Positions 45,341-59,615 of a stretch of DNA of 64,000 bases are shown in pieces. The notes under the pieces were generated by a model that was not told the DNA's origin, made no database searches, and was given only the letters and a program-made list of their open reading frames with translations. Numbering within the stretch: the first letter of the stretch is position 1; each line of letters starts with the position of its first letter. This DNA is from an uncultured Gaiellales bacterium (GTDB taxonomy: Bacteria > Actinomycetota > Thermoleophilia > RBG-16-64-13): NCBI GenBank assembly GCA_964423425.1, contig CAYRES010000001.1, positions 298,191 to 362,190 on the forward strand, given 5' to 3'. The translations under genes and the position numbers were made by a program.

Positions 45341-45742
45341 GTGGTGGCAGTCGACACCGTCACGCTGACTCTTCCCCGTGGGGCCGGCTATCTGGCGCTG
45401 TTGCATCTGGTGTTGGGTGGGATAGCACTTCGGAAGGACCTGAGCTTCGACGACTTGGACGACGTGCAGCTCGCCGTCGACAGTATCCTGGCTGAGGATC
45501 CGGGTCGGGTGGGCGACGTGGAGATGAAGGTGTCCCTCGAGGAGGAGGGCCTGCGTATCCGGCTTGCCGCTTTCTCCAACCAGAGCATGAAGGCCTCGCT
45601 CGGCGGCAGTTCTCGGTCGCCTGCGCCTGAACCGCAGCACCTCGACATGGGCGTGCTCCTGGAAAGCCTCTGCGACAGCTTCGTGGTTGAGGACTTGAGG
45701 GGCGATTGTTATGCCATCGAATTGTGGAAGCGGACAGGTTAG
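45341..45742 (+). CDS. RsbW/UsfX-like anti-sigma factor (short, degenerate ATP-binding motifs)
   Basis: N-terminus LTLPRGAGYLALLHLVLGGIA...DDLDDVQLAVDSILAED resembles RsbW. The C-terminus is RsbW-like, LLESLCDSFVVEDLRGDCYAIELWKR. It sits directly upstream of the SigB-like gene. Confidence 0.5.
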   Translation: MVAVDTVTLTLPRGAGYLALLHLVLGGIALRKDLSFDDLDDVQLAVDSILAEDPGRVGDVEMKVSLEEEGLRIRLAAFSNQSMKASLGGSSRSPAPEPQHLDMGVLLESLCDSFVVEDLRGDCYAIELWKRTG

Positions 45743-45749
45743 CCCCCGT

Positions 45750-46589
45750 ATGGTGCAAGAGCCCCACGATGCGTGGCATAGTTCAGCGGGATTCCACGAG
45801 AATCTCGCCGACGTACCGGAGAAGGAATTGCTGCGTCGGGTCCACGAAGAGGGTGACCGCGCCGCGCGGGACGAACTGATCACGAGATACCTCCCACTTG
45901 TGCGCAGTCTGGCGCGGCGATTCGCTGCGCGGGGGCAATCGGTAGAGGATCTCACGCAAGTCGGCTCCATAGGTCTCATCAAAGCCATCGACCGCTTCGA
46001 CGTGGAGAGAGGAGTGGAGCTCTCCACCTACGCGACGCCGACCGTGATGGGGGAGATCAAGCGCTACTTCAGGGATAAGGGGTGGGCGGTCAAAGTACCG
46101 CGGGCCCTGCAGGATCTCAACGTTCGCCTCAATCGGGTCATCGAACAACTCACGGTCGAACTGAAACGCTCGCCCACCATTGCCGACATGGCTGAGGCGT
46201 GCGATGTGAGCGAGGAGGATGTGCTGGAGGCTCTCGAAAGCGGCCGTGCCTACAGTTCGCTGTCGATCTACGGTGGAAGCACTTCCGAAGATGACGATGC
46301 ATTTGAGATACTTGATTGTCTCGGTACCGAGGAGCGGGAGTATGAATTGGTGGAACAGCGCCGCTTCCTCGCACCGGCAATGGAGAAACTGGACGAGCGA
46401 GAGCGTCTGATACTGCACCTTCGCTTCTTCGAAGGCATGACCCAGACGCAGATCGCGGCACGTGTGGGCATCTCGCAGATGCACGTCTCGCGGCTCATCA
46501 GGAAGTCCCTGGAGGTGCTCCGCACTGCCATGGCTGACACTGGGGCGGTCTCACCTGCGGAACAGGTGAAGGGCAGCACCGGCCACTGA
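45750..46589 (+). CDS. RNA polymerase sigma factor, SigB/SigF group
   Basis: Sequence LITRYLPLVRSLARRF...DLTQVGSIGLIKAIDRFD...TYATPTVMGEIKRYFRDKGWAVKVPR, and a region 4 HTH. Confidence 0.85.
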   Translation: MVQEPHDAWHSSAGFHENLADVPEKELLRRVHEEGDRAARDELITRYLPLVRSLARRFAARGQSVEDLTQVGSIGLIKAIDRFDVERGVELSTYATPTVMGEIKRYFRDKGWAVKVPRALQDLNVRLNRVIEQLTVELKRSPTIADMAEACDVSEEDVLEALESGRAYSSLSIYGGSTSEDDDAFEILDCLGTEEREYELVEQRRFLAPAMEKLDERERLILHLRFFEGMTQTQIAARVGISQMHVSRLIRKSLEVLRTAMADTGAVSPAEQVKGSTGH

Positions 46590-50970: not shown

Positions 50971-51834
50971 ATGGCCGCTGCCATCTCGGGCTCGACGAAG
51001 GTTCTGGCATTGCTGGGTCATCCCGTGGCGCATTCACTGTCGCCGCGGCTTCACAATGCCGCCTGTGAGGCTCTTGGCCTCGATATGGTCTATGTCACGT
51101 TCGACGTCGAGCCCGCCGCTCTCCCTGCCGCGGTCGACGGCCTCCGCGCCCTGGGCGTGGCCGGTGCGAATGTCACCGTGCCCCACAAGGAGCGGGTGGC
51201 TGCTTTGCTCGACACCTTGGAGGGCGCTGCCGCCTCGCTTCGCACGGTGAACACCATCGTGAATCGTGACGGCCGCTTGAGCGGTCACAACACCGACGTT
51301 GCGGGTTTCAGCCGCGCCCTCTGCGCAGGGCTCCCAGGGAAGCCTGCCGGAAGCCGGTACGTGGTCTTCGGGGCGGGCGGGGCCGCGCGGGCCGTGGTGT
51401 GGGGGCTCGTAGCCCTCGGCGCGGCGCGTGTCTCCATCTACAACAGGACTCACGAGAAGGCGGTGGCCTTGGCGGCCGAAGCACGCAACTGGGCCTCTCC
51501 CGAGGGTGCGTGTGAGGTCGAAGCAACCGTCCTCTCCGGCCTGGCCGCACGTATCGACGACGCCCAGGTGGTGGTGAACGCCACCAGTGTCGGTTTGGAA
51601 TCCGGCCTCAAGGACATTCCCTTTCCTGTCGATAGTCTATCTAGCAAACACACGGTGATGGATTTGGTGTACGACACACAACCAACGGTGTTCCTACAAA
51701 AGGCGGGGGAGAAGGGCGCTCACCTCATCTCAGGTGTGTCCATGCTTCTGGAGCAGGCCGCGCTCTCTTTCACTCTCTGGACGGGGCGGAAGCCCCCGCT
51801 CTTGGACATGAAGAGGGCACTGGAGCTGGTGTGA
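50971..51834 (+). CDS. aroE: shikimate dehydrogenase
   Basis: Sequence LALLGHPVAHSLSPRLHNAA...VFGAGGAARAV matches AroE. ATG follows SD GGAGAGGGG. Confidence 0.88.
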   Translation: MAAAISGSTKVLALLGHPVAHSLSPRLHNAACEALGLDMVYVTFDVEPAALPAAVDGLRALGVAGANVTVPHKERVAALLDTLEGAAASLRTVNTIVNRDGRLSGHNTDVAGFSRALCAGLPGKPAGSRYVVFGAGGAARAVVWGLVALGAARVSIYNRTHEKAVALAAEARNWASPEGACEVEATVLSGLAARIDDAQVVVNATSVGLESGLKDIPFPVDSLSSKHTVMDLVYDTQPTVFLQKAGEKGAHLISGVSMLLEQAALSFTLWTGRKPPLLDMKRALELV

Positions 51835-53552
51835 TGCAATTGCCGAACGAAGAGCTCTCTCAGCGCAGACAGACGAAGAAGCGTACAGGTGAGATCCTGG
51901 TGGAGATGGGTCTCATCACCCCGCAGCAACTCATGGAGGCGCTCGAGGAGCAGAAGGTCAGCCATCGGCGCATTGGAGAGATCCTGGTTGAGCGCAAATG
52001 GGTCAAGAACTACGAGCTGGCCGAAGCCTTGGGCCGTCGGCTCGGTGTGCGTTTTATCGATCTCTCTGAGACCAGGATCGATCCCGCCGCCGCCAGCCTC
52101 ATCTCTGAACGTGATGCCAGACGCTATGCGGCGCTGCCGGTGGCATTCGATGATGATCATACCCTTGTTGTGGCAATGGCCGATCCGGCCAACATCTTTG
52201 CCATAGATGATCTGCGTATCCTCACCGGCTGCGACATTGAGCCGGGCATCGCCACAGAGGAAGACATCTTCGAACAGATCGGCCAGCTGAACCGGCTCGA
52301 TGAGAGGGTGGGGCAGGATCTCGAAACCGCTGCGGAAGAAGACGCCTCTGACCAAGACATCCGCGACCTCTTGGAGAGGGTCGACGAGGCCCCCATCGTC
52401 AAGCTCGTCAACAGCATCATTGCTCAGGCCGCCGAGGACGGGGCCTCCGACATACACTTCGAGCCACAGGCCAAGGAGATGACTGTGCGGTTCCGCCAAG
52501 ACGGCGTGCTCCACGAGGTGATGTCGGTACCGCGCAGGCTGCAATCAGGCGTATTGTCCCGGCTCAAGATCATGGCCGACCTCGACATCGCCGAACGCCG
52601 TGTTCCGCAAGATGGGCGCATCGGGCTCATGGTGGGCGGCAAACCCATCGACATGCGGGTCGCCAGCCTGCCCACCGTGTACGGAGAGAAGATTGTCATC
52701 CGTTTGCTCGACCGGTCCAGCGTGCTCATGCGTCTTGAAGACCTGGGCTTCGGTGAGAAAGCCCTCGCCCGCTACCGTAAGTCGTTCACGAAGCCCTACG
52801 GGGCCATCCTGGTGACGGGCCCGACTGGATCGGGCAAGTCCACCACGCTCTATGCGACGCTGAACATCTTGAACTCGCCGGAGAAGAACGTGATCACGGT
52901 GGAGGACCCGGTGGAGTACCGCCTCCCGGGCATCAACCAGGTGCAGACCAACACCAAAGCCGGGCTCACGTTTGCTTCGGGCCTCCGTTCGATCCTGCGT
53001 TGTGATCCCGACATCGTCATGATCGGCGAGATTCGCGACAAGGAGACCGCTCAGATAGCCATCGAATCGGCCCTCACCGGCCATCTCGTGCTCTCCACAC
53101 TGCACACGAACGATGCTCCCGGAGCGCTGTCCCGGCTCACGGAGATGGGCATCGAGCCCTTCCTCACCGCTTCCGCAGTCGATTGTGTGCTGGCCCAGAG
53201 GCTGGCGCGGCGCCTTTGCGACTTCTGCAAAGAAGCTTACAAGCCGACGAAGGAGATGCTGCGCCGTAACGACTTCCCCCAAGAAGTGGTGGATGACTGG
53301 GAGTCCGTGACGCTCTACCGCGCCCAGGGCTGCAAGCGCTGCAACGGCACCGGCTACAAGGGCCGTTTGGGCATCTACGAGGTCATGCTGGTCTCTGAAG
53401 CCATAGAAAGGCTAACGGTAGAACGCAAGAGTGCCGATGAAATAGGCAGAGTGGCTCAAGCTGAGGGCATGAAGAGCCTTCGTGAGGATGGCATCGACAA
53501 GGTACTCGACGGCATCACGAGCATCGAAGAGATTGCCCGCGTGATCGTGTAG
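51831..53552 (+). CDS. pilB: type IV pilus assembly ATPase PilB (GspE family)
   Basis: N-terminal GSPII domain, Walker A ILVTGPTGSGKSTTLY, a Cys tetrad (CDFC...CKRCNGTG), and a His box. Confidence 0.9.
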   Translation: MMQLPNEELSQRRQTKKRTGEILVEMGLITPQQLMEALEEQKVSHRRIGEILVERKWVKNYELAEALGRRLGVRFIDLSETRIDPAAASLISERDARRYAALPVAFDDDHTLVVAMADPANIFAIDDLRILTGCDIEPGIATEEDIFEQIGQLNRLDERVGQDLETAAEEDASDQDIRDLLERVDEAPIVKLVNSIIAQAAEDGASDIHFEPQAKEMTVRFRQDGVLHEVMSVPRRLQSGVLSRLKIMADLDIAERRVPQDGRIGLMVGGKPIDMRVASLPTVYGEKIVIRLLDRSSVLMRLEDLGFGEKALARYRKSFTKPYGAILVTGPTGSGKSTTLYATLNILNSPEKNVITVEDPVEYRLPGINQVQTNTKAGLTFASGLRSILRCDPDIVMIGEIRDKETAQIAIESALTGHLVLSTLHTNDAPGALSRLTEMGIEPFLTASAVDCVLAQRLARRLCDFCKEAYKPTKEMLRRNDFPQEVVDDWESVTLYRAQGCKRCNGTGYKGRLGIYEVMLVSEAIERLTVERKSADEIGRVAQAEGMKSLREDGIDKVLDGITSIEEIARVIV

Positions 53553-53580
53553 CGGCACGCAGACGGCAGGGAGGTACAAC

Positions 53581-54645
53581 GTGGATCTGGCCGACATTCT
53601 GCTTGAGGTATTGGAACGGGGGGCATCCGACCTTCACCTCACGGTGGGGGTGCCTCCTGCGGTTCGCATCAACGGTACCCTCGAGCATCTCGATTATCCA
53701 CGCCTGAGCCTCACCGACACCAGAGAACTCGTCTACAGCATCCTCACCCAGGAGCAGCGACAGCGCTTGGAAACCGACTGGGAGATCGACTTCTCCTACT
53801 CCGTACCCGGGGCAGCCCGCTTCCGTGTCAATGCCTTCTTCCAGCGGAACAGCCTGGGCGCCGCGTTTCGCTTGGTGCCGCTGAACGTTCTGAATATCGA
53901 CGACCTGTCGTTGCCGAAGGTGGCGCATACCTTCTGTACGAAGGCTCGAGGCATCATCCTGGTTACGGGCCCCACCGGTTCGGGGAAGTCCACCACGCTC
54001 GCGGCCATCATCGACGAGATCAACGATATCCGCTCCGACCACATCATGACCATCGAAGATCCCATCGAATTCCTTCATAAGCACAAGAGCTGTATCGTGA
54101 ATCAGCGCGAGGTCGGCACGGACACCAAGGGGTTCGGCCGGGCGCTGCGCTCGGTACTCCGGCAGGATCCCGACATCATTCTCATCGGCGAGATGCGCGA
54201 CTTGGAGACCATACAGACCGCGCTCACCGCGGCCGAGACGGGCCACTTGGTCTTCGCCACCCTTCACACGCAGGACTGCCCGCAGACCATCGACCGGATG
54301 ATCGACGTCTTCCCCCCTCATCAGCAGGAGCAGATCAGGGTCCAGATCGCAGCGACCATCCAGGGTGTGCTGTCACAACAGCTTCTGGCCCGTAGGGACG
54401 GCCACGGGCGAGTGGTGGCCTGTGAGGTGTTGATTCCCACGCCGGCGGTGCGCAATCTCATACGCGAGGGAAAGACCCATCAGATCTACACCATTATGCA
54501 GACCGGCACCAAGTTCGGCATGCAGACCATGGATGCAGCCCTCGCCGATCTCGTGAGACGCAAGCTCATCACCCGCGAGATGGCGGAGACCCACGCATCC
54601 AACCCGGAAGACCTGGGCAGGTTGCTCATGAGCGGCGCTGCGTAG
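53581..54645 (+). CDS. pilT: type IV pilus retraction ATPase PilT
   Basis: Sequence ASDLHLTVGVPPAVRINGTL, Walker A ILVTGPTGSGKSTTLA, and the AIRNLIREGKTHQI motif. Confidence 0.9.
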   Translation: MDLADILLEVLERGASDLHLTVGVPPAVRINGTLEHLDYPRLSLTDTRELVYSILTQEQRQRLETDWEIDFSYSVPGAARFRVNAFFQRNSLGAAFRLVPLNVLNIDDLSLPKVAHTFCTKARGIILVTGPTGSGKSTTLAAIIDEINDIRSDHIMTIEDPIEFLHKHKSCIVNQREVGTDTKGFGRALRSVLRQDPDIILIGEMRDLETIQTALTAAETGHLVFATLHTQDCPQTIDRMIDVFPPHQQEQIRVQIAATIQGVLSQQLLARRDGHGRVVACEVLIPTPAVRNLIREGKTHQIYTIMQTGTKFGMQTMDAALADLVRRKLITREMAETHASNPEDLGRLLMSGAA

Positions 54646-54683
54646 GCGGCGGTGTGTGAGCGGAGGAGCGGGGGAGGGATACA

Positions 54684-55904
54684 GTGACAACCTATGTGTA
54701 CACCGCTCGAGGTGACCGGGGAGCCTCACAGCGCGGCGAGGCTGACGGTGCCTCCAAGGCTGCGGTAGCCGCTGAGCTGCGGCGGAAGGGTCTGACCGTA
54801 CTCACCCTCGACGAGAAGCGTGGCCAGAGCCTCAAGGCCCTCGACGACTACCTGCAGAACTTGACCACCATCAAGATGCGCGATCGGGTAGTGTTCTCGC
54901 GGCAGTTCGCCACGATGATCAACTCCGGGCTGGCCATCCTGCGTTCGCTCTATATCCTCGAGGAACAAACCGCCAATCCGCGATTCAAGAAGATCATCGC
55001 CGCCGTACGGAACGACGTGGAAGCCGGTCTACCCATCTCCGATGCTATGGAGAAACATCCGGCGGCCTTCAACACACTCTACGTAGCCATGGTCCGTGCG
55101 GGAGAAGTGGGGGGCGTACTCGACCAGACACTCGACAGGCTGGCGACTCAGCTAGAGAAGCAGGACAGCCTCAGGCGGACCGTCAAGTCGGCCATGACCT
55201 ACCCGATTCTCATCGGAGTCTTCGCCATCCTCGTCATGTTTGGCATGATCGTCTTCCTCATTCCCATGTTCGAGAACATGTATACCGAACTCGGGGGCAC
55301 TCTGCCGCTCCTCACCCGGATCATGGTGGGCATCAGTAACTTTGTGCGCAGCTGGTGGTTCATCGTGTTCCCCGCCCTCATCGCGCTCATCTTCGGTCTT
55401 CGTGAACTCAAGCGCAGCAAACAGGGTGTGAGAGTCTGGGATCGCGTCAAGCTGAAGACCCCCATGCGAATCGGCGACATCATCCGCAAGATCGTGATGG
55501 CACGTTTCAGTCGTACCCTGGCGACGCTGGTCACTTCCGGGGTCCCTATTCTGCAGGCCATCGACATCACGGGCAAGACCGCCGGTAACAGCGTAGTGGA
55601 AGAAGCCATGCATGACACCAAGGAACGCATCAAGGCGGGTGACTCCATAGCCCGGCCCTTGGAGAGGTTCCCCATATTCCCTCCCATGGTCACACAAATG
55701 ATCGCCATCGGGGAAGAGACCGGCGCCCTCGACAGCATGCTGCATAAGATCGCCGATTTCTACGAGGATGAGGTCGATGCCGCCATCAAGTCTCTGACTT
55801 CCATCTTGGAACCCATAATGATGATCCTGGTGGGAGGCCTGGTGGGAGTCATCGTCATCTCGATGTACCTGCCCATCTTCAACATGTTCAACCTGGTGCA
55901 GTAG
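54684..55904 (+). CDS. pilC: type IV pilus inner-membrane platform protein PilC (GspF family)
   Basis: Two T2SSF repeats with conserved GLPISDAM and VAIGEETGALD motifs. Confidence 0.88.
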   Translation: MTTYVYTARGDRGASQRGEADGASKAAVAAELRRKGLTVLTLDEKRGQSLKALDDYLQNLTTIKMRDRVVFSRQFATMINSGLAILRSLYILEEQTANPRFKKIIAAVRNDVEAGLPISDAMEKHPAAFNTLYVAMVRAGEVGGVLDQTLDRLATQLEKQDSLRRTVKSAMTYPILIGVFAILVMFGMIVFLIPMFENMYTELGGTLPLLTRIMVGISNFVRSWWFIVFPALIALIFGLRELKRSKQGVRVWDRVKLKTPMRIGDIIRKIVMARFSRTLATLVTSGVPILQAIDITGKTAGNSVVEEAMHDTKERIKAGDSIARPLERFPIFPPMVTQMIAIGEETGALDSMLHKIADFYEDEVDAAIKSLTSILEPIMMILVGGLVGVIVISMYLPIFNMFNLVQ

Positions 55905-55913
55905 GAGAGGATC

Positions 55914-56759
55914 GTGCCGGCAACCGCACAACTGGCGAGCGTAGAGGCCTCGGCCGGCTCCCGGGTCGAGTCCCGCGACATGTTGCTCGGCAGGGCACCG
56001 CAGCCCGGCCGGCACACGTCTGAGACGAACGAGGCCTGGGCGAGCTGTTACCAGAGAACCGGTTGTCTGACCTGCCTGGATACCCTTGTGGAGGCCAACG
56101 AGCCGCTCCTGCATCACACCTTGCGACGCTTCCGTTCCAGCAACGAACCCTACGAAGACCTGTTCCAAGTCGCCCGCATGGGCCTGTTGAAGGCCGCACA
56201 GCGCTATAAGCCCGACCGGGGCACGCGCTTCTCCACGTACGCGACCGCTATAGTCGACGGTGAAGTCCGACATTACCTGCGCGACAGTCTGCTTATGCGC
56301 CAGCCCCGATGGGCACGACGTCTCTACGGTGAGGTCGAACGTGCGCAGGCCGACTTCTTTCGGGAGCGCGGTCGGTATCCGACGGTGTCGGAAATCGGCG
56401 AGGCCATCAACGTGCGCGAGGAAGGTGTCACCGAGATTCTTCGTGTGTGGGCTCAGCTCAATATCCATTCCTGTGACGAGCCCGATGTCTTGGAGGAGTC
56501 TCCTTCGGTGGATCGGAGCCTCGTACGTAGCGCACGCAGAGAGAGCTTCAGCTTACCCGTAGAAGATCGCATCGCGCTGTACGACGCGCTGTCGACTCTG
56601 TCTGAGCTGCAGCGGCGCATCATCTACCTGGTGTTCTTCAAAGACCTCACGCAACAGCAGGTGGCCGATGAGGTCGGCCTGAACCAACGGGCCGTCTCGC
56701 GAGAACAGATGAGAGCCCTGTCGCGCCTGAAGGGCATACTCACCAAGAAGGTCTTCTGA
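55914..56759 (+). CDS. RNA polymerase sigma factor, group 3 (FliA/WhiG/SigB-like)
   Basis: Regions 2, 3 and 4 are recognisable (YEDLFQVARMGLLKAAQRY...FSTYATAIVDGEVRHYLRD...LTQQQVADEVGLNQRAVSR). GTG follows SD AGGAGAGG, directly after pilC. Confidence 0.8.
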   Translation: MPATAQLASVEASAGSRVESRDMLLGRAPQPGRHTSETNEAWASCYQRTGCLTCLDTLVEANEPLLHHTLRRFRSSNEPYEDLFQVARMGLLKAAQRYKPDRGTRFSTYATAIVDGEVRHYLRDSLLMRQPRWARRLYGEVERAQADFFRERGRYPTVSEIGEAINVREEGVTEILRVWAQLNIHSCDEPDVLEESPSVDRSLVRSARRESFSLPVEDRIALYDALSTLSELQRRIIYLVFFKDLTQQQVADEVGLNQRAVSREQMRALSRLKGILTKKVF

Positions 56760-56930
56760 GCGGTTACCGGCCCAGCCGAGGCCGGTGCGCACCCGTCATC
56801 CGGCAGTAAGTGACAATGGGCGCCGCTCGGCCTCTTGGTCGGTCGGGTATCGGTGAAGAAGGCGCCGGAAGATGAGGCAATCGCGAATGAGTTGCGCCTC
56901 CCCACGTTTCCCTCCTGCTCTCACGCGCGA

Positions 56931-56944
56931 TAATGTACATTATG
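56931..56944. repeat. 14-bp perfect palindrome ATAATGTACATTAT in an AT-richer convergent spacer
   Basis: Read directly from sequence. It lies inside the 409-bp gap between the sigma gene end and the MerR gene end. Confidence 0.6.
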
Positions 56945-57168
56945 TCAAGTAGACATCGGCACGCGCATCCGACTCCACAAGGTGAACCTTTCGTTGCGTC
57001 TCTGAGGACTCTCAGATTCCTCAACCCCCCACCCCTGGCCCAACCCCGCGGATGCCGGTCGCATAGGGTGGCGCGCAGCCGCGGACCGTGTTCTCGCCGC
57101 GGCGCGGAATCTCAGCGCGGCTTTGTGCCGCCAACGTGTGGGGTCTGCCGCGAGGTGATCGCGGCCGT

Positions 57169-57927
57169 TTACGAGGACGTCAGGGAGCGGCCGAAGCGGC
57201 GCATCTCCTTGTACAGCAGCAACTGCCGCAGGTTGCCGAGCAACGTGCCCAGTTCCACCAGGAGCTCCCGTCCCTCTTCTCTACGCTCGCGGTTGTGGGA
57301 GTGCAGAGAGGGTGCCACCACCTGTTCGACCAGGGAGAACTCCCGCTCGACCGATGAGCGCAGGAGCCGCAGATTCCGAGGCTCCAACCCGTACCTGCCG
57401 AACCGGTGGCAGATACGCGCGATCTCCACATCGCTCTCCCCGAGCAGCCCGCTCAGGCCGTCCTCCCGGCGATCTATGAGCCGGAACTCCACCAGTTGGG
57501 CCAGGAAATCCTCACTCACCCCCAGGACCTCAAGAGCCTCGTCCCAGGTCATCTCTGACTCCTGGCGTATCAGGGCATCTGAGCGCTCGGGAGTATGAGA
57601 ACCGGGTATGGCGCCGCTCACCGCCGAGGCCGTACCCCTATCCAAGCGATCCTTGATGACGTTGAGGGGCAAGTATTGATCGCGCTGCAGCTGCAGAGCC
57701 GTTCTCAAGCGGTGGACATCAGCGGCCGCGTACTTCCGGTAGCCGCCGGAGGTGCGCCGAGGGGTGATGATGCCACGATCTTCGAGATAGCGCACCTTGC
57801 TGATACTGACATCGGGGAAGTCGGAGATGAGCTGTTTCACCACCTGGCCGATGGTGAAAAGACGTTCCTGGGTGCCGCTGGAAGCGAGAGGCTTCGGTTC
57901 TCTGGGTTGCTCCACGCCGCTCATCAC
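57169..57927 (-). CDS. MerR family transcriptional regulator (FtsR/Rv1828-like)
   Basis: N-terminal MerR HTH FTIGQVVKQL...SKVRYLEDRGIITPRRTSGGYRKY. A second domain resembles the actinobacterial Rv1828 type. It sits next to an FHA gene. Confidence 0.8.
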   Translation of the reverse strand: MMSGVEQPREPKPLASSGTQERLFTIGQVVKQLISDFPDVSISKVRYLEDRGIITPRRTSGGYRKYAAADVHRLRTALQLQRDQYLPLNVIKDRLDRGTASAVSGAIPGSHTPERSDALIRQESEMTWDEALEVLGVSEDFLAQLVEFRLIDRREDGLSGLLGESDVEIARICHRFGRYGLEPRNLRLLRSSVEREFSLVEQVVAPSLHSHNRERREEGRELLVELGTLLGNLRQLLLYKEMRRFGRSLTSS

Positions 57928-57937
57928 CCCGCCCGGC

Positions 57938-58408
57938 CTAGCTTTGCGCCTGTTCCAAGAACACGAGCTTGAATTTGCCGATCTGCAGCTCGTCGCCGTC
58001 CTTCAGGCGCTGGCGCTCCACGCGCGTACGATTGACGTAGGTTCCGTTGAGGCTGTTCTGGTCCTCAACCAGCAGACCCGTGGCGTCACGCATGATGCGG
58101 GCGTGATGCCGCGACACCGTGACATCATCCAGGAACAAGCCGCTCTCCGGCGTACGTCCGATAGTGAGGGGCTCGTCCGTGAGGGGTATCTCCTCCCCTT
58201 CGCGCCCTCCACCGGCACGAATGATGAGCATGGGTGCTTCGCGTGGGTAGACAGTCTCGTATTCCTGGTCATGCGGCTCGCATTCGGCCACCGACTCGAG
58301 CACGGCCGTCGTGTGCGCTGCGTCCGATGGTACAAGGCGATTGCCACAACGGCTGCAGAAATTGGCGTCGTCGCTGTTCTCGAAGCCACACTTGGCGCAC
58401 CCGATCAT
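57938..58408 (-). CDS. FHA domain protein with N-terminal zinc ribbon (GarA/OdhI-like position)
   Basis: Zinc ribbon CAKCG...CSRCGN at the N-terminus. The FHA core reads TIGRTPESGLFLDDVTVSRHHARI...NSLNGTYVNRTRV. Confidence 0.8.
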   Translation of the reverse strand: MIGCAKCGFENSDDANFCSRCGNRLVPSDAAHTTAVLESVAECEPHDQEYETVYPREAPMLIIRAGGGREGEEIPLTDEPLTIGRTPESGLFLDDVTVSRHHARIMRDATGLLVEDQNSLNGTYVNRTRVERQRLKDGDELQIGKFKLVFLEQAQS

Positions 58409-58415
58409 CTATCGC

Positions 58416-58733
58416 CTAACCCTTCTTACTCCGTACGTCCATCACGGCGTAGTCGACTTTGTACTGATAGAGCCGGCCGGCAAGCTGATTCTCGATACCC
58501 TCCACTATTTCGGGTTTCTCCACCAACCGGGCGCGGGAATCCTCACTGGTGTTGTTCAGCACATATGGTTCGGCCAGCACCTCATCGAAACGCTTACCAC
58601 TCTGCATCTCGGCGACGATGTGCCGCACGACCCGCTGTTCTCGCACCCCACCCCTCATGTTCGCGAAGAAGTCTCTCGTAGCTTCAATGGCCCGCTCAAG
58701 CATTACTCTTACCCCCTTGCCACGTCGCCACAA
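58416..58733 (-). CDS. hypothetical protein
   Basis: ORF between the FHA gene and gcvH on the same strand, 8 nt from the FHA start. No family recognised. Alternative start MLERAIEA. Confidence 0.4.
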   Translation of the reverse strand: MWRRGKGVRVMLERAIEATRDFFANMRGGVREQRVVRHIVAEMQSGKRFDEVLAEPYVLNNTSEDSRARLVEKPEIVEGIENQLAGRLYQYKVDYAVMDVRSKKG

Positions 58734-58867
58734 CCCTAAACCTAAAGTGTACCTGCAGAGGGGCCCTTGTCAATACGGCACCCCGCCTCACGTGGCTCCT
58801 CCCGCTCGGCTTGGAGCAAGGCCGTGACCCCCTGTCACGTCTCGGGCAGTGCACACCCGGCGGTGTG

Positions 58868-59167
58868 TTATTCCGAGGCCGGCGGATCGACCGGCTCGTC
58901 TTCCACCAGGCCGCGAGAGCTCAGGATCGACGACAGCCGGGTGATGTCGGCCTCGTCAAACAGCGGCCTGCCCTGCCGATGCTTGTCGCGCAGGCGCCTC
59001 ACCATCTCCGCACGAATGATATCGAGCTGACCGTGCAGCAGGCGACGCTTCTTTGATATCTCGCGTTCCTCGGTCTCCAAACGTGCCGACAGTGTCTGTA
59101 GGTCATCATCGCTGTAGGATTGGATGTTGACCAGTAGATCGAACGAAGACGTGTCCTGTTCACTCAT
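58868..59167 (-). CDS. hypothetical coiled-coil protein; candidate single-motif RsiG-like anti-sigma factor
   Basis: 99 aa. EREISKKRRLLHGQLD fits E-x3-S-x2-R-x3-(Q/H)-x3-D at 4 of 5 positions. This is a candidate only. Confidence 0.4.
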   Translation of the reverse strand: MSEQDTSSFDLLVNIQSYSDDDLQTLSARLETEEREISKKRRLLHGQLDIIRAEMVRRLRDKHRQGRPLFDEADITRLSSILSSRGLVEDEPVDPPASE

Positions 59168-59228: not shown

Positions 59229-59615
59229 TTATTCCCCTTGCTCGGCCAGCATAGCCTCGTATTGCTCATGCGACATGAGCGCATCAAGCTCCTCCATGTG
59301 GGAAAGACGCACCTTGACCAGCCAGCCCTGCTCGTAAGGACTGGAGTTAAGCAGCTCGGGAGCATCGACGACCTGCTCGTTCGCCTCGAGCACAGTACCG
59401 GTCATGGGCGCGAACACATCGGACACCGCCTTCACCGACTCGATCTCCGCATACGGCTCGTCGGCGGCGAGTTCGGTGCCCACTTCGGGCAACTCCACGT
59501 ACACGATGTCACCAAGGGACTTCTGAGCGTAGTCGGTGATGCCGAAGGTGCCGACATCTCCCTCCACACACACCCAGTCGTGCTCCTTGTGGAACTTGAG
59601 GTCCCTGGTGTTCAC
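59229..59615 (-). CDS. gcvH: glycine cleavage system H protein
   Basis: Sequence EHDWVCVEG...ELPEVG...ESVKAVSDVFAPMTG carries the lipoyl-lysine. GTG follows SD AAAGGAGC. The ORF-track 190-aa version is over-extended. Confidence 0.88.
   Translation of the reverse strand: MNTRDLKFHKEHDWVCVEGDVGTFGITDYAQKSLGDIVYVELPEVGTELAADEPYAEIESVKAVSDVFAPMTGTVLEANEQVVDAPELLNSSPYEQGWLVKVRLSHMEELDALMSHEQYEAMLAEQGE

Follow-up and report, generated by a model that had tools for sequence, protein, structure and literature searches.

The gene at positions 58868-59167 of the window (the whole stretch of DNA analyzed here, 64,000 nucleotides in length) is best explained as encoding a single-motif, c-di-GMP-dependent anti-sigma factor of the RsiG type, whose partner sigma factor is encoded elsewhere in the genome and is not the SigB/F-type sigma factor found 2.1 kb away; we put the probability of this reading at roughly 0.7 (0.72). 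That the protein dimerizes, binds c-di-GMP and WhiG, and takes part in any control of pili, we infer from homology to characterized RsiG proteins. The features on which the analysis draws are listed in Table 1.

Table 1. Features of the window, with coordinates, strand and the basis of each assignment.
Feature	Coordinates	Strand	Basis and remarks
rsiG-like gene	58868..59167	-	99-aa single-motif RsiG-family protein; PF22802 49.4 bits vs gathering score 27
c-di-GMP-binding signature (predicted), E34-x3-S38-x2-R41-x3-H45-x3-D49	59021..59068	-	read from sequence
small ORF, 95 aa, directly downstream of rsiG	58416..58703 (longest ORF starts at 58733)	-	no family match
zinc-ribbon and FHA-domain protein (OdhI/GarA-like)	57938..58408	-	Pfam FHA 68 bits, plus Zn_Ribbon_1; NCBIfam OdhI 102.6 bits, below its cutoff of 200
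ftsR, MerR-type regulator of ftsZ	57169..57927	-	NF050798 TF_FtsR_Actino 214 bits vs cutoff 150
gcvH, upstream of rsiG on the same strand, 61-nt gap	59229..59615	-	NCBIfam gcvH 160 bits vs cutoff 116
pilB-pilT-pilC, type IV pilus	51831..55904	+	NCBIfam PilB 656, PilT family 492, PilC 424 bits
PilB N-terminal MshEN c-di-GMP-binding domain (predicted), RTGEILVEMGLITPQQLMEALEEQ	gene 51831..53552	+	NF053729 67 bits vs cutoff 38
SigB/F-type group-3 sigma	55914..56759	+	9 nt after pilC; SigBFG 173 bits vs FliA_WhiG 82
second sigma, canonical SigB/F/G	45711..46589	+	295 bits vs cutoff 234

The 99-amino-acid open reading frame (ORF) was called identically by gene callers on more than 20 independent metagenome contigs. 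Residues 34-49 of its product read EREISKKRRLLHGQLD, with the pattern E-x3-S-x2-R-x3-H-x3-D. From this near-signature, in which E, S, R and D are in place and H stands for Q, the first-pass annotation had proposed a single-motif RsiG-like protein, and profile comparison bore it out. The protein matched the Pfam RsiG family (PF22802) at E=3.6e-13 over residues 15-63, a similarity of about 50 residues that reaches well beyond the motif and passes the curated cutoff. When the PDB was searched with phmmer, the significant matches were RsiG chains only, from Rubrobacter radiotolerans (7LQ2, 7LQ3 and 7LQ4) and Streptomyces venezuelae (6PFJ), at E-values of about 2.5e-7 to 9e-7, and identity to the Rubrobacter protein RsiG_Rr was about 45% over the helix. 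Similarly, a profile of 29 homologues searched against the whole PDB (E<=0.01) returned four RsiG sequences and nothing else, at about 1e-11 to 2e-12, and the family profile aligned to both motif helices (alpha1 and alpha5) of the twin-motif Streptomyces RsiG. The gene scored 150 bits to the family HMM, no other RsiG-like ORF was found in the window, and public collections already tag the exact 99-aa protein with PF22802. By these matches, the product is a genuine single-motif member of the RsiG family.

The residues predicted to contact the nucleotide (E34, S38, R41, H45 and D49) were invariant in the 29 homologues, which are 48-76% identical. More than 580 relatives were found with one genome taken per species; the best 80, all of Thermoleophilia type (L005-L084), come from Solirubrobacterales, Thermoleophilaceae, Gaiellales, Conexibacter and Patulibacter medicamentivorans I11. 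The motif was intact in every one of these best 80 of more than 580 loci, with histidine at the Q/H position in 79. In the family at large, histidine filled that position in 151 of 166 motifs among the best 150 of 1,264 representatives (clusters at 50% identity, E<=1e-3), most of which have a single motif. The histidine, which had been feared to abolish binding, is no obstacle: the motif is published as E(X)3S(X)2R(X)3[Q/H](X)3D, and histidine is able to make the same guanine-stacking contact (PMC8325347). The protein is therefore new but its family is known, as the single-motif form, the taxonomic home and the [Q/H] variant have all been published already. The organism is of a deep-branching, Thermoleophilia-type lineage, and single-motif RsiGs were described from this same group, in support of the first-pass annotation. 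In uncultured Thermoleophilia the single-motif, His-type RsiGs amount to a very large family, far exceeding the five originally described.

Patulibacter medicamentivorans is one of the five species with a described single-motif RsiG, and the RsiGs of all five co-purified with their cognate WhiG. Its gene carries the same His-type motif as the window gene and lies in the same position relative to the FHA gene and ftsR. Because motif and neighbors agree and a single RsiG, PAI11_41790, is listed for that genome, the window protein is, as judged by synteny and motif, an orthologue of a characterized RsiG. The alignment-based, single-chain AF2 model of the window protein has a helix at residues 8-13, a long helix at 20-64 (pLDDT >90), a loop (65-71) with the nearly invariant G66, and a helix at 72-83. 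This matches the layout described for RsiG_Rr and the single-motif subtype, in which flexible linkers that contain glycine connect one long helix to a short helix at either end; a Foldseek search with the monomer model gave no significant match. If the protein acts as in the Rubrobacter (RsiG)2-(c-di-GMP)2-WhiG structure, two copies would pair their long helices (about residues 20-64) as an antiparallel coiled coil, and the five signature residues of both chains would clamp an intercalated c-di-GMP dimer. High c-di-GMP would then lead to sequestration of the partner sigma factor.

The immediate neighborhood of rsiG is strongly conserved. Of the best 80 of more than 580 loci, 79 have the FHA gene and then ftsR behind rsiG on its own strand; in the remaining one the contig stops immediately behind rsiG. 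From the rsiG stop to the FHA start, the median distance in these best 80 of more than 580 was 23 nt, and stop and start overlap in Patulibacter. On the other side, gcvH lay upstream of rsiG in 16 of the same best 80 of more than 580. Divergent from gcvH-rsiG, the segment 59841-60923 (+) encodes a Roadblock/LC7 protein with weak similarity to MglB (83 bits, cutoff 200) and a small Ras-like GTPase; the pair resembles Myxococcus MglB/MglA and was present upstream of rsiG in 22 of the best 80 of more than 580 loci.

In the window's sub-lineage the small ORF lies directly behind rsiG and ahead of the FHA gene; its 95-aa product matched nothing in Pfam, NCBIfam or the PDB and retrieved itself only in a homology search. 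Its single-sequence structure model reached a pLDDT of 64, and Foldseek found nothing significant with it. The domain was present in 14 of the best 80 of more than 580 loci, in each case immediately behind rsiG. In-frame fusions to RsiG, with a variable linker, occur in L009 (9968-10615), L019 (9935-10594) and P0131, and a fusion to the FHA protein occurs in a single case (L015, 4923-5708). Identity among the three RsiG fusions is just 50-61%, which speaks for inheritance of the fusion and against misassembly. The in-frame fusions suggest a joint role for the small protein and RsiG, the former likely being an RsiG accessory domain. Among the family representatives, P0157, P0160, P0231, P0264, P0199 and P0244 are apparent fusions of RsiG to the FHA protein. 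They contain out-of-frame stretches rich in Arg, Ala, Ser and Pro, and the likeliest explanation is that indels in error-prone assemblies have joined overlapping genes. Between rsiG and the small ORF there is a sigma-70-like promoter match (TTGACA-16-TACACT, 58746-58773, minus strand); it is a single consensus match, of a kind expected at chance frequency. The genes downstream of rsiG may have their own promoter in the window's clade.

This arrangement raises an alternative in which the small domain, the FHA protein and FtsR are the main or additional partners of RsiG in Thermoleophilia. RsiG would then do more than act as an anti-sigma factor, feeding c-di-GMP into Ser/Thr-phosphorylation signalling and ftsZ transcription. 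If true, it would tie c-di-GMP to cell division. The spread of the rsiG-FHA-ftsR order over several orders, its short gaps, and the fusions of the small ORF (three with diverged RsiGs, one with the FHA protein) are all in its favor. In addition, the RsiG papers considered here are silent on synteny and on FHA or MerR genes, and none of the papers searched names RsiG together with FtsR. However, odhI/garA-ftsR is a strongly conserved actinobacterial block of ancient origin whose upstream slot varies by lineage (PMC6683498), and the linkage may reflect inherited gene order without function. Against the alternative, too, are the sigma-70-like match that separates rsiG from the downstream genes in the window, the WhiG binding of orthologues from the same class, the artefactual nature of the apparent RsiG-FHA fusions, and a small domain with no recognizable fold or family in Pfam, NCBIfam, the PDB or Foldseek. 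We consider this alternative unlikely.

The first-pass annotation had described a group-3 sigma gene directly after pilB, pilT and pilC and 2.1 kb from rsiG, which is what the window contains, and had assigned it to the WhiG/FliA family, which the comparisons contradict. In NCBIfam its score to the SigBFG model, which falls below that model's cutoff of 234 bits, was more than double that to FliA_WhiG (TIGR02479, cutoff 189.6). The ranking of solved relatives was the same, with SigF (1L0O) at 97 bits, the sigma chain 8X6G_H at 83 and WhiG at 46. The protein shares both SigB/F-type indels, and one member of its cluster bears the JGI name 'sigma-B factor'. In a neighbor-joining tree of 27 sigma factors, the SigB/F and WhiG/FliA sides were split in 100 of 100 bootstraps; the window sigma, its four orthologues and the second window sigma fell on the SigB/F side, and the WhiG/FliA side included 16 sigmas with the WhiG2 signature. 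Grouping with SigB/SigF was the outcome that the first-pass annotation had itself named beforehand as refuting its proposal. The window sigma is divergent and sits on a long branch.

Residues at the published contact positions point the same way. In WhiG, Lys57, Gly61 and Arg62 contact c-di-GMP, and T235, L236, Y239, E240 and L242 contact RsiG; any side chain at the Gly61 position would clash with c-di-GMP. Rubrobacter WhiG retains the sequence 'SPLVKYAAGRV'. At the positions of Lys57, Gly61 and Arg62, the window sigma has H, R and R, keeping R62, and its four orthologues have H, K and R. The five RsiG-contacting positions of sigma-4 read Y, L, F, K and L in the window sigma. Positions 239 and 240, an invariant Y and E in WhiG2, are F and K/G/R in the window sigma and its orthologues. 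From its sequence, then, the sigma at 55914-56759 is of the SigB/F type and not a member of the WhiG/FliA family.

The distribution of this sigma gene is narrow. It was present in four of the best 80 of more than 580 loci, those of the window's closest relatives, and the ftsR-pilC gap of ten further relatives that have pilBTC next to ftsR held no hidden sigma, only an apt-like gene. Because of this distribution, we read the sigma behind pilC as a recent, clade-specific insertion. As RsiG is equally conserved with or without it, the RsiG partner must, on this comparison, be something common to both kinds of lineage. The local circuit of c-di-GMP, anti-sigma factor, sigma factor and type IV pilus that had been proposed for this locus fails as written, since the neighboring sigma is of the wrong type and an insertion; it should not be tested as a WhiG. 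An apt-like gene follows ftsR in 12 of 14 relatives examined and in Patulibacter and is missing from the window, where the convergent sigma and ftsR genes are separated by a 410-nt non-coding gap (56760-57168). The second sigma gene of the window overlaps the end of a weak RsbW-like ORF, and the two (45341-46589, +) lie between a DUF948 gene and alaS.

A WhiG partner was sought in the window and beyond it. Six-frame translation of the window, searched with WhiG_Sv, revealed no sigma factor besides the two of SigB/F type, and within about 84 kb around rsiG we found no WhiG and no GGDEF, EAL or HD-GYP genes. RsiG always co-occurs with a WhiG homologue in surveyed genomes, and we assume the same for this one. 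Among the matches listed for metagenomic loci with a WhiG2-signature gene, an RsiG-like ORF was present in just 1 of 80; rsiG and whiG are usually unlinked, and the lack of a nearby WhiG is for this reason uninformative by itself. The one locus of the 80 with such an adjacency, a 1-kb metagenome contig (L097), has an RsiG-like ORF (3-596, +) directly upstream of a WhiG2-signature gene (692-717, +). A metagenome scan with the WhiG2 signature peptide gave no contig from this organism's samples among the matches listed. When a 76-aa fragment of Rubrobacter WhiG sigma-2 was used to query a protein collection, all 8 candidates were short fragments, and one that was followed up (P0123) proved to be an unrelated low-GC FliA fragment.

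The pilus genes themselves form a tight string, in which aroE and pilB overlap by 4 nt and the gaps along pilB-pilT-pilC-sigma are 28, 38 and 9 nt. The MshEN domain makes PilB a second predicted c-di-GMP receptor at the locus, and through this domain the motor ATPase could be the direct target of any link between c-di-GMP and the pilus at this locus. The pilT-pilC spacer of the sigma-less relatives (L007, L009, L010, L012-L017 and L019) is 125-197 nt long in every one of the ten. Each has, 47-114 nt ahead of pilC, an element T[TA][GC]A-N16-[GA][CT]CGATA (e.g., TTGA-N16-GCCGATAA), whose two boxes are separated by non-conserved sequence. The GCCGATAA box is the hallmark -10 box of sigma-28/WhiG promoters and was used to find the pilus promoters of Rubrobacter. 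Enrichment of the element was 12 observed against 0.8 expected, a figure that is partly circular because the motif was refined on the sites themselves; the unbiased sigma-28 consensus from the literature had already found four of the sites. WhiG-dependent expression of pilC is thus plausible, from these sites, in the wider lineage, and such a promoter would carry pilus control by WhiG beyond Rubrobacter into Thermoleophilia.

No sigma-28-type element was found in the pilT-pilC spacer of the window (54645-54684) or of its sigma-bearing relatives, where the spacer measures 20-57 nt. The literature sigma-28 consensus had 15 matches in the window against about 6 expected, all of them inside reading frames (e.g., those encoding 'SADE' in PilB, 'PVDS' in AroE and 'ADI' in a zinc-ribbon ORF); we rejected these as promoter evidence because their recurrence in relatives can be explained by protein constraint. 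The SigB/F consensus promoter GTTT-N14-17-GGGTA had no match in the window. As the window's clade is without the sigma-28-type pilC promoter, control of pili by WhiG may not apply in it. In this genome the proposed link to type IV pili is indirect at best. It is also improbable, in our estimate, that RsiG serves as the c-di-GMP-sensing head of a conserved module that includes the small domain, the FHA protein and FtsR, the activator of ftsZ, while in the window's clade the lost sigma-28-type pilC promoter and the SigB/F-type sigma on pilBTC may mark a rewiring of pilus control.

A second alternative keeps the local circuit of the first-pass annotation with a sigma of another family: in this small clade, RsiG would have come to regulate the SigB/F-type sigma, itself co-transcribed with pilBTC on this view. 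The proximity of that sigma to rsiG and its place 9 nt after pilC in an operon-like string are consistent with this, as is the coincidence of its presence with loss of the sigma-28-type pilC promoter of relatives. It has no RsbW/SpoIIAB-type gene beside it, whereas the second sigma has a weak RsbW-like gene upstream, and it keeps the equivalents of R62 and of L236 and L242. However, it has H at Lys57 and, with its orthologues, R or K at Gly61, where the predicted clash with c-di-GMP would occur, and F and K/G/R where WhiG2 has its invariant Y and E. It also groups with SigB/F at full bootstrap support and is absent from 76 of the best 80 of more than 580 loci, in which RsiG is equally conserved. 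We judge such a switch of partner to be quite improbable. The suggestion that a loose motif arose by chance in a short, charged coiled-coil ORF, with just five positions specified in helices rich in E, R, K and L, has a negligible probability and is refuted by the roughly 50-residue similarity that passes the curated Pfam cutoff, the 1,264 representative clusters at E<=1e-3, the invariance of the motif in homologues, the synteny kept in 79 of the best 80 of more than 580 genomes, and the codon-position GC of 0.65/0.39/0.73 in 58868-59167, which has the pattern of a coding frame.

A single-motif RsiG whose partner is encoded elsewhere is the preferred reading. Three leads from its surroundings go unmentioned in the RsiG papers considered here, namely the rsiG-FHA-ftsR arrangement, the RsiG-fused small domain and the conserved sigma-28-type promoter before pilC in relatives.

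Among known systems, the closest are the single-motif RsiGs RsiG_Pm (PAI11_41790), RsiG_Cw (Cwoe_3492), RsiG_Ta and RsiG_Rr (RradSPS_1442), with structures 7LQ2, 7LQ3 and 7LQ4; those from Thermoleophilia belong to the same taxonomic class as the window protein. Like them it is small (about 90-120 aa) and has a single long helix, bearing the motif, between short helices. The stacking position is His in the window protein, as it is in Patulibacter and most of the clade, but Gln in RsiG_Rr, and the electrostatic-contact residues D39 and R72 of RsiG_Rr align with N14 and Q47. Unlike these described single-motif genes, the window gene has an extra small ORF behind it. The twin-motif RsiG (AmfC) of Streptomyces venezuelae (6PFJ and 6PFV) has the same motif and belongs to the same helix family. 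That protein, at least about 176 residues long, is monomeric, carries two motifs as well as a loop covering c-di-GMP, and controls sporulation; with one motif in place of two, the window protein would have to dimerize to build the site.

The sigma factor behind pilC resembles SigB, SigF and SigG, which are paired with the partner-switching anti-sigma factors RsbW and SpoIIAB, in its best HMM, its PDB relatives, its indels and its tree position, but it lacks an adjacent RsbW-like gene and is attached to pilBTC. The genes downstream of rsiG compare with the odhI/garA-ftsR block of Corynebacterium (cg1630-cg1631) and M. tuberculosis (Rv1827-Rv1828), in which the FHA gene likewise immediately precedes ftsR, and gcvH and DUF881/DUF1290 genes are close by. 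In contrast to that block, the window's FHA protein has an N-terminal zinc ribbon and scores below the OdhI cutoff, and the downstream nuclease and second MerR genes were not seen here; most relatives have the apt-like gene in that place and the window has none. The slot upstream of the FHA gene is occupied by rsiG in 79 of the best 80 of more than 580 loci, all of Thermoleophilia type.
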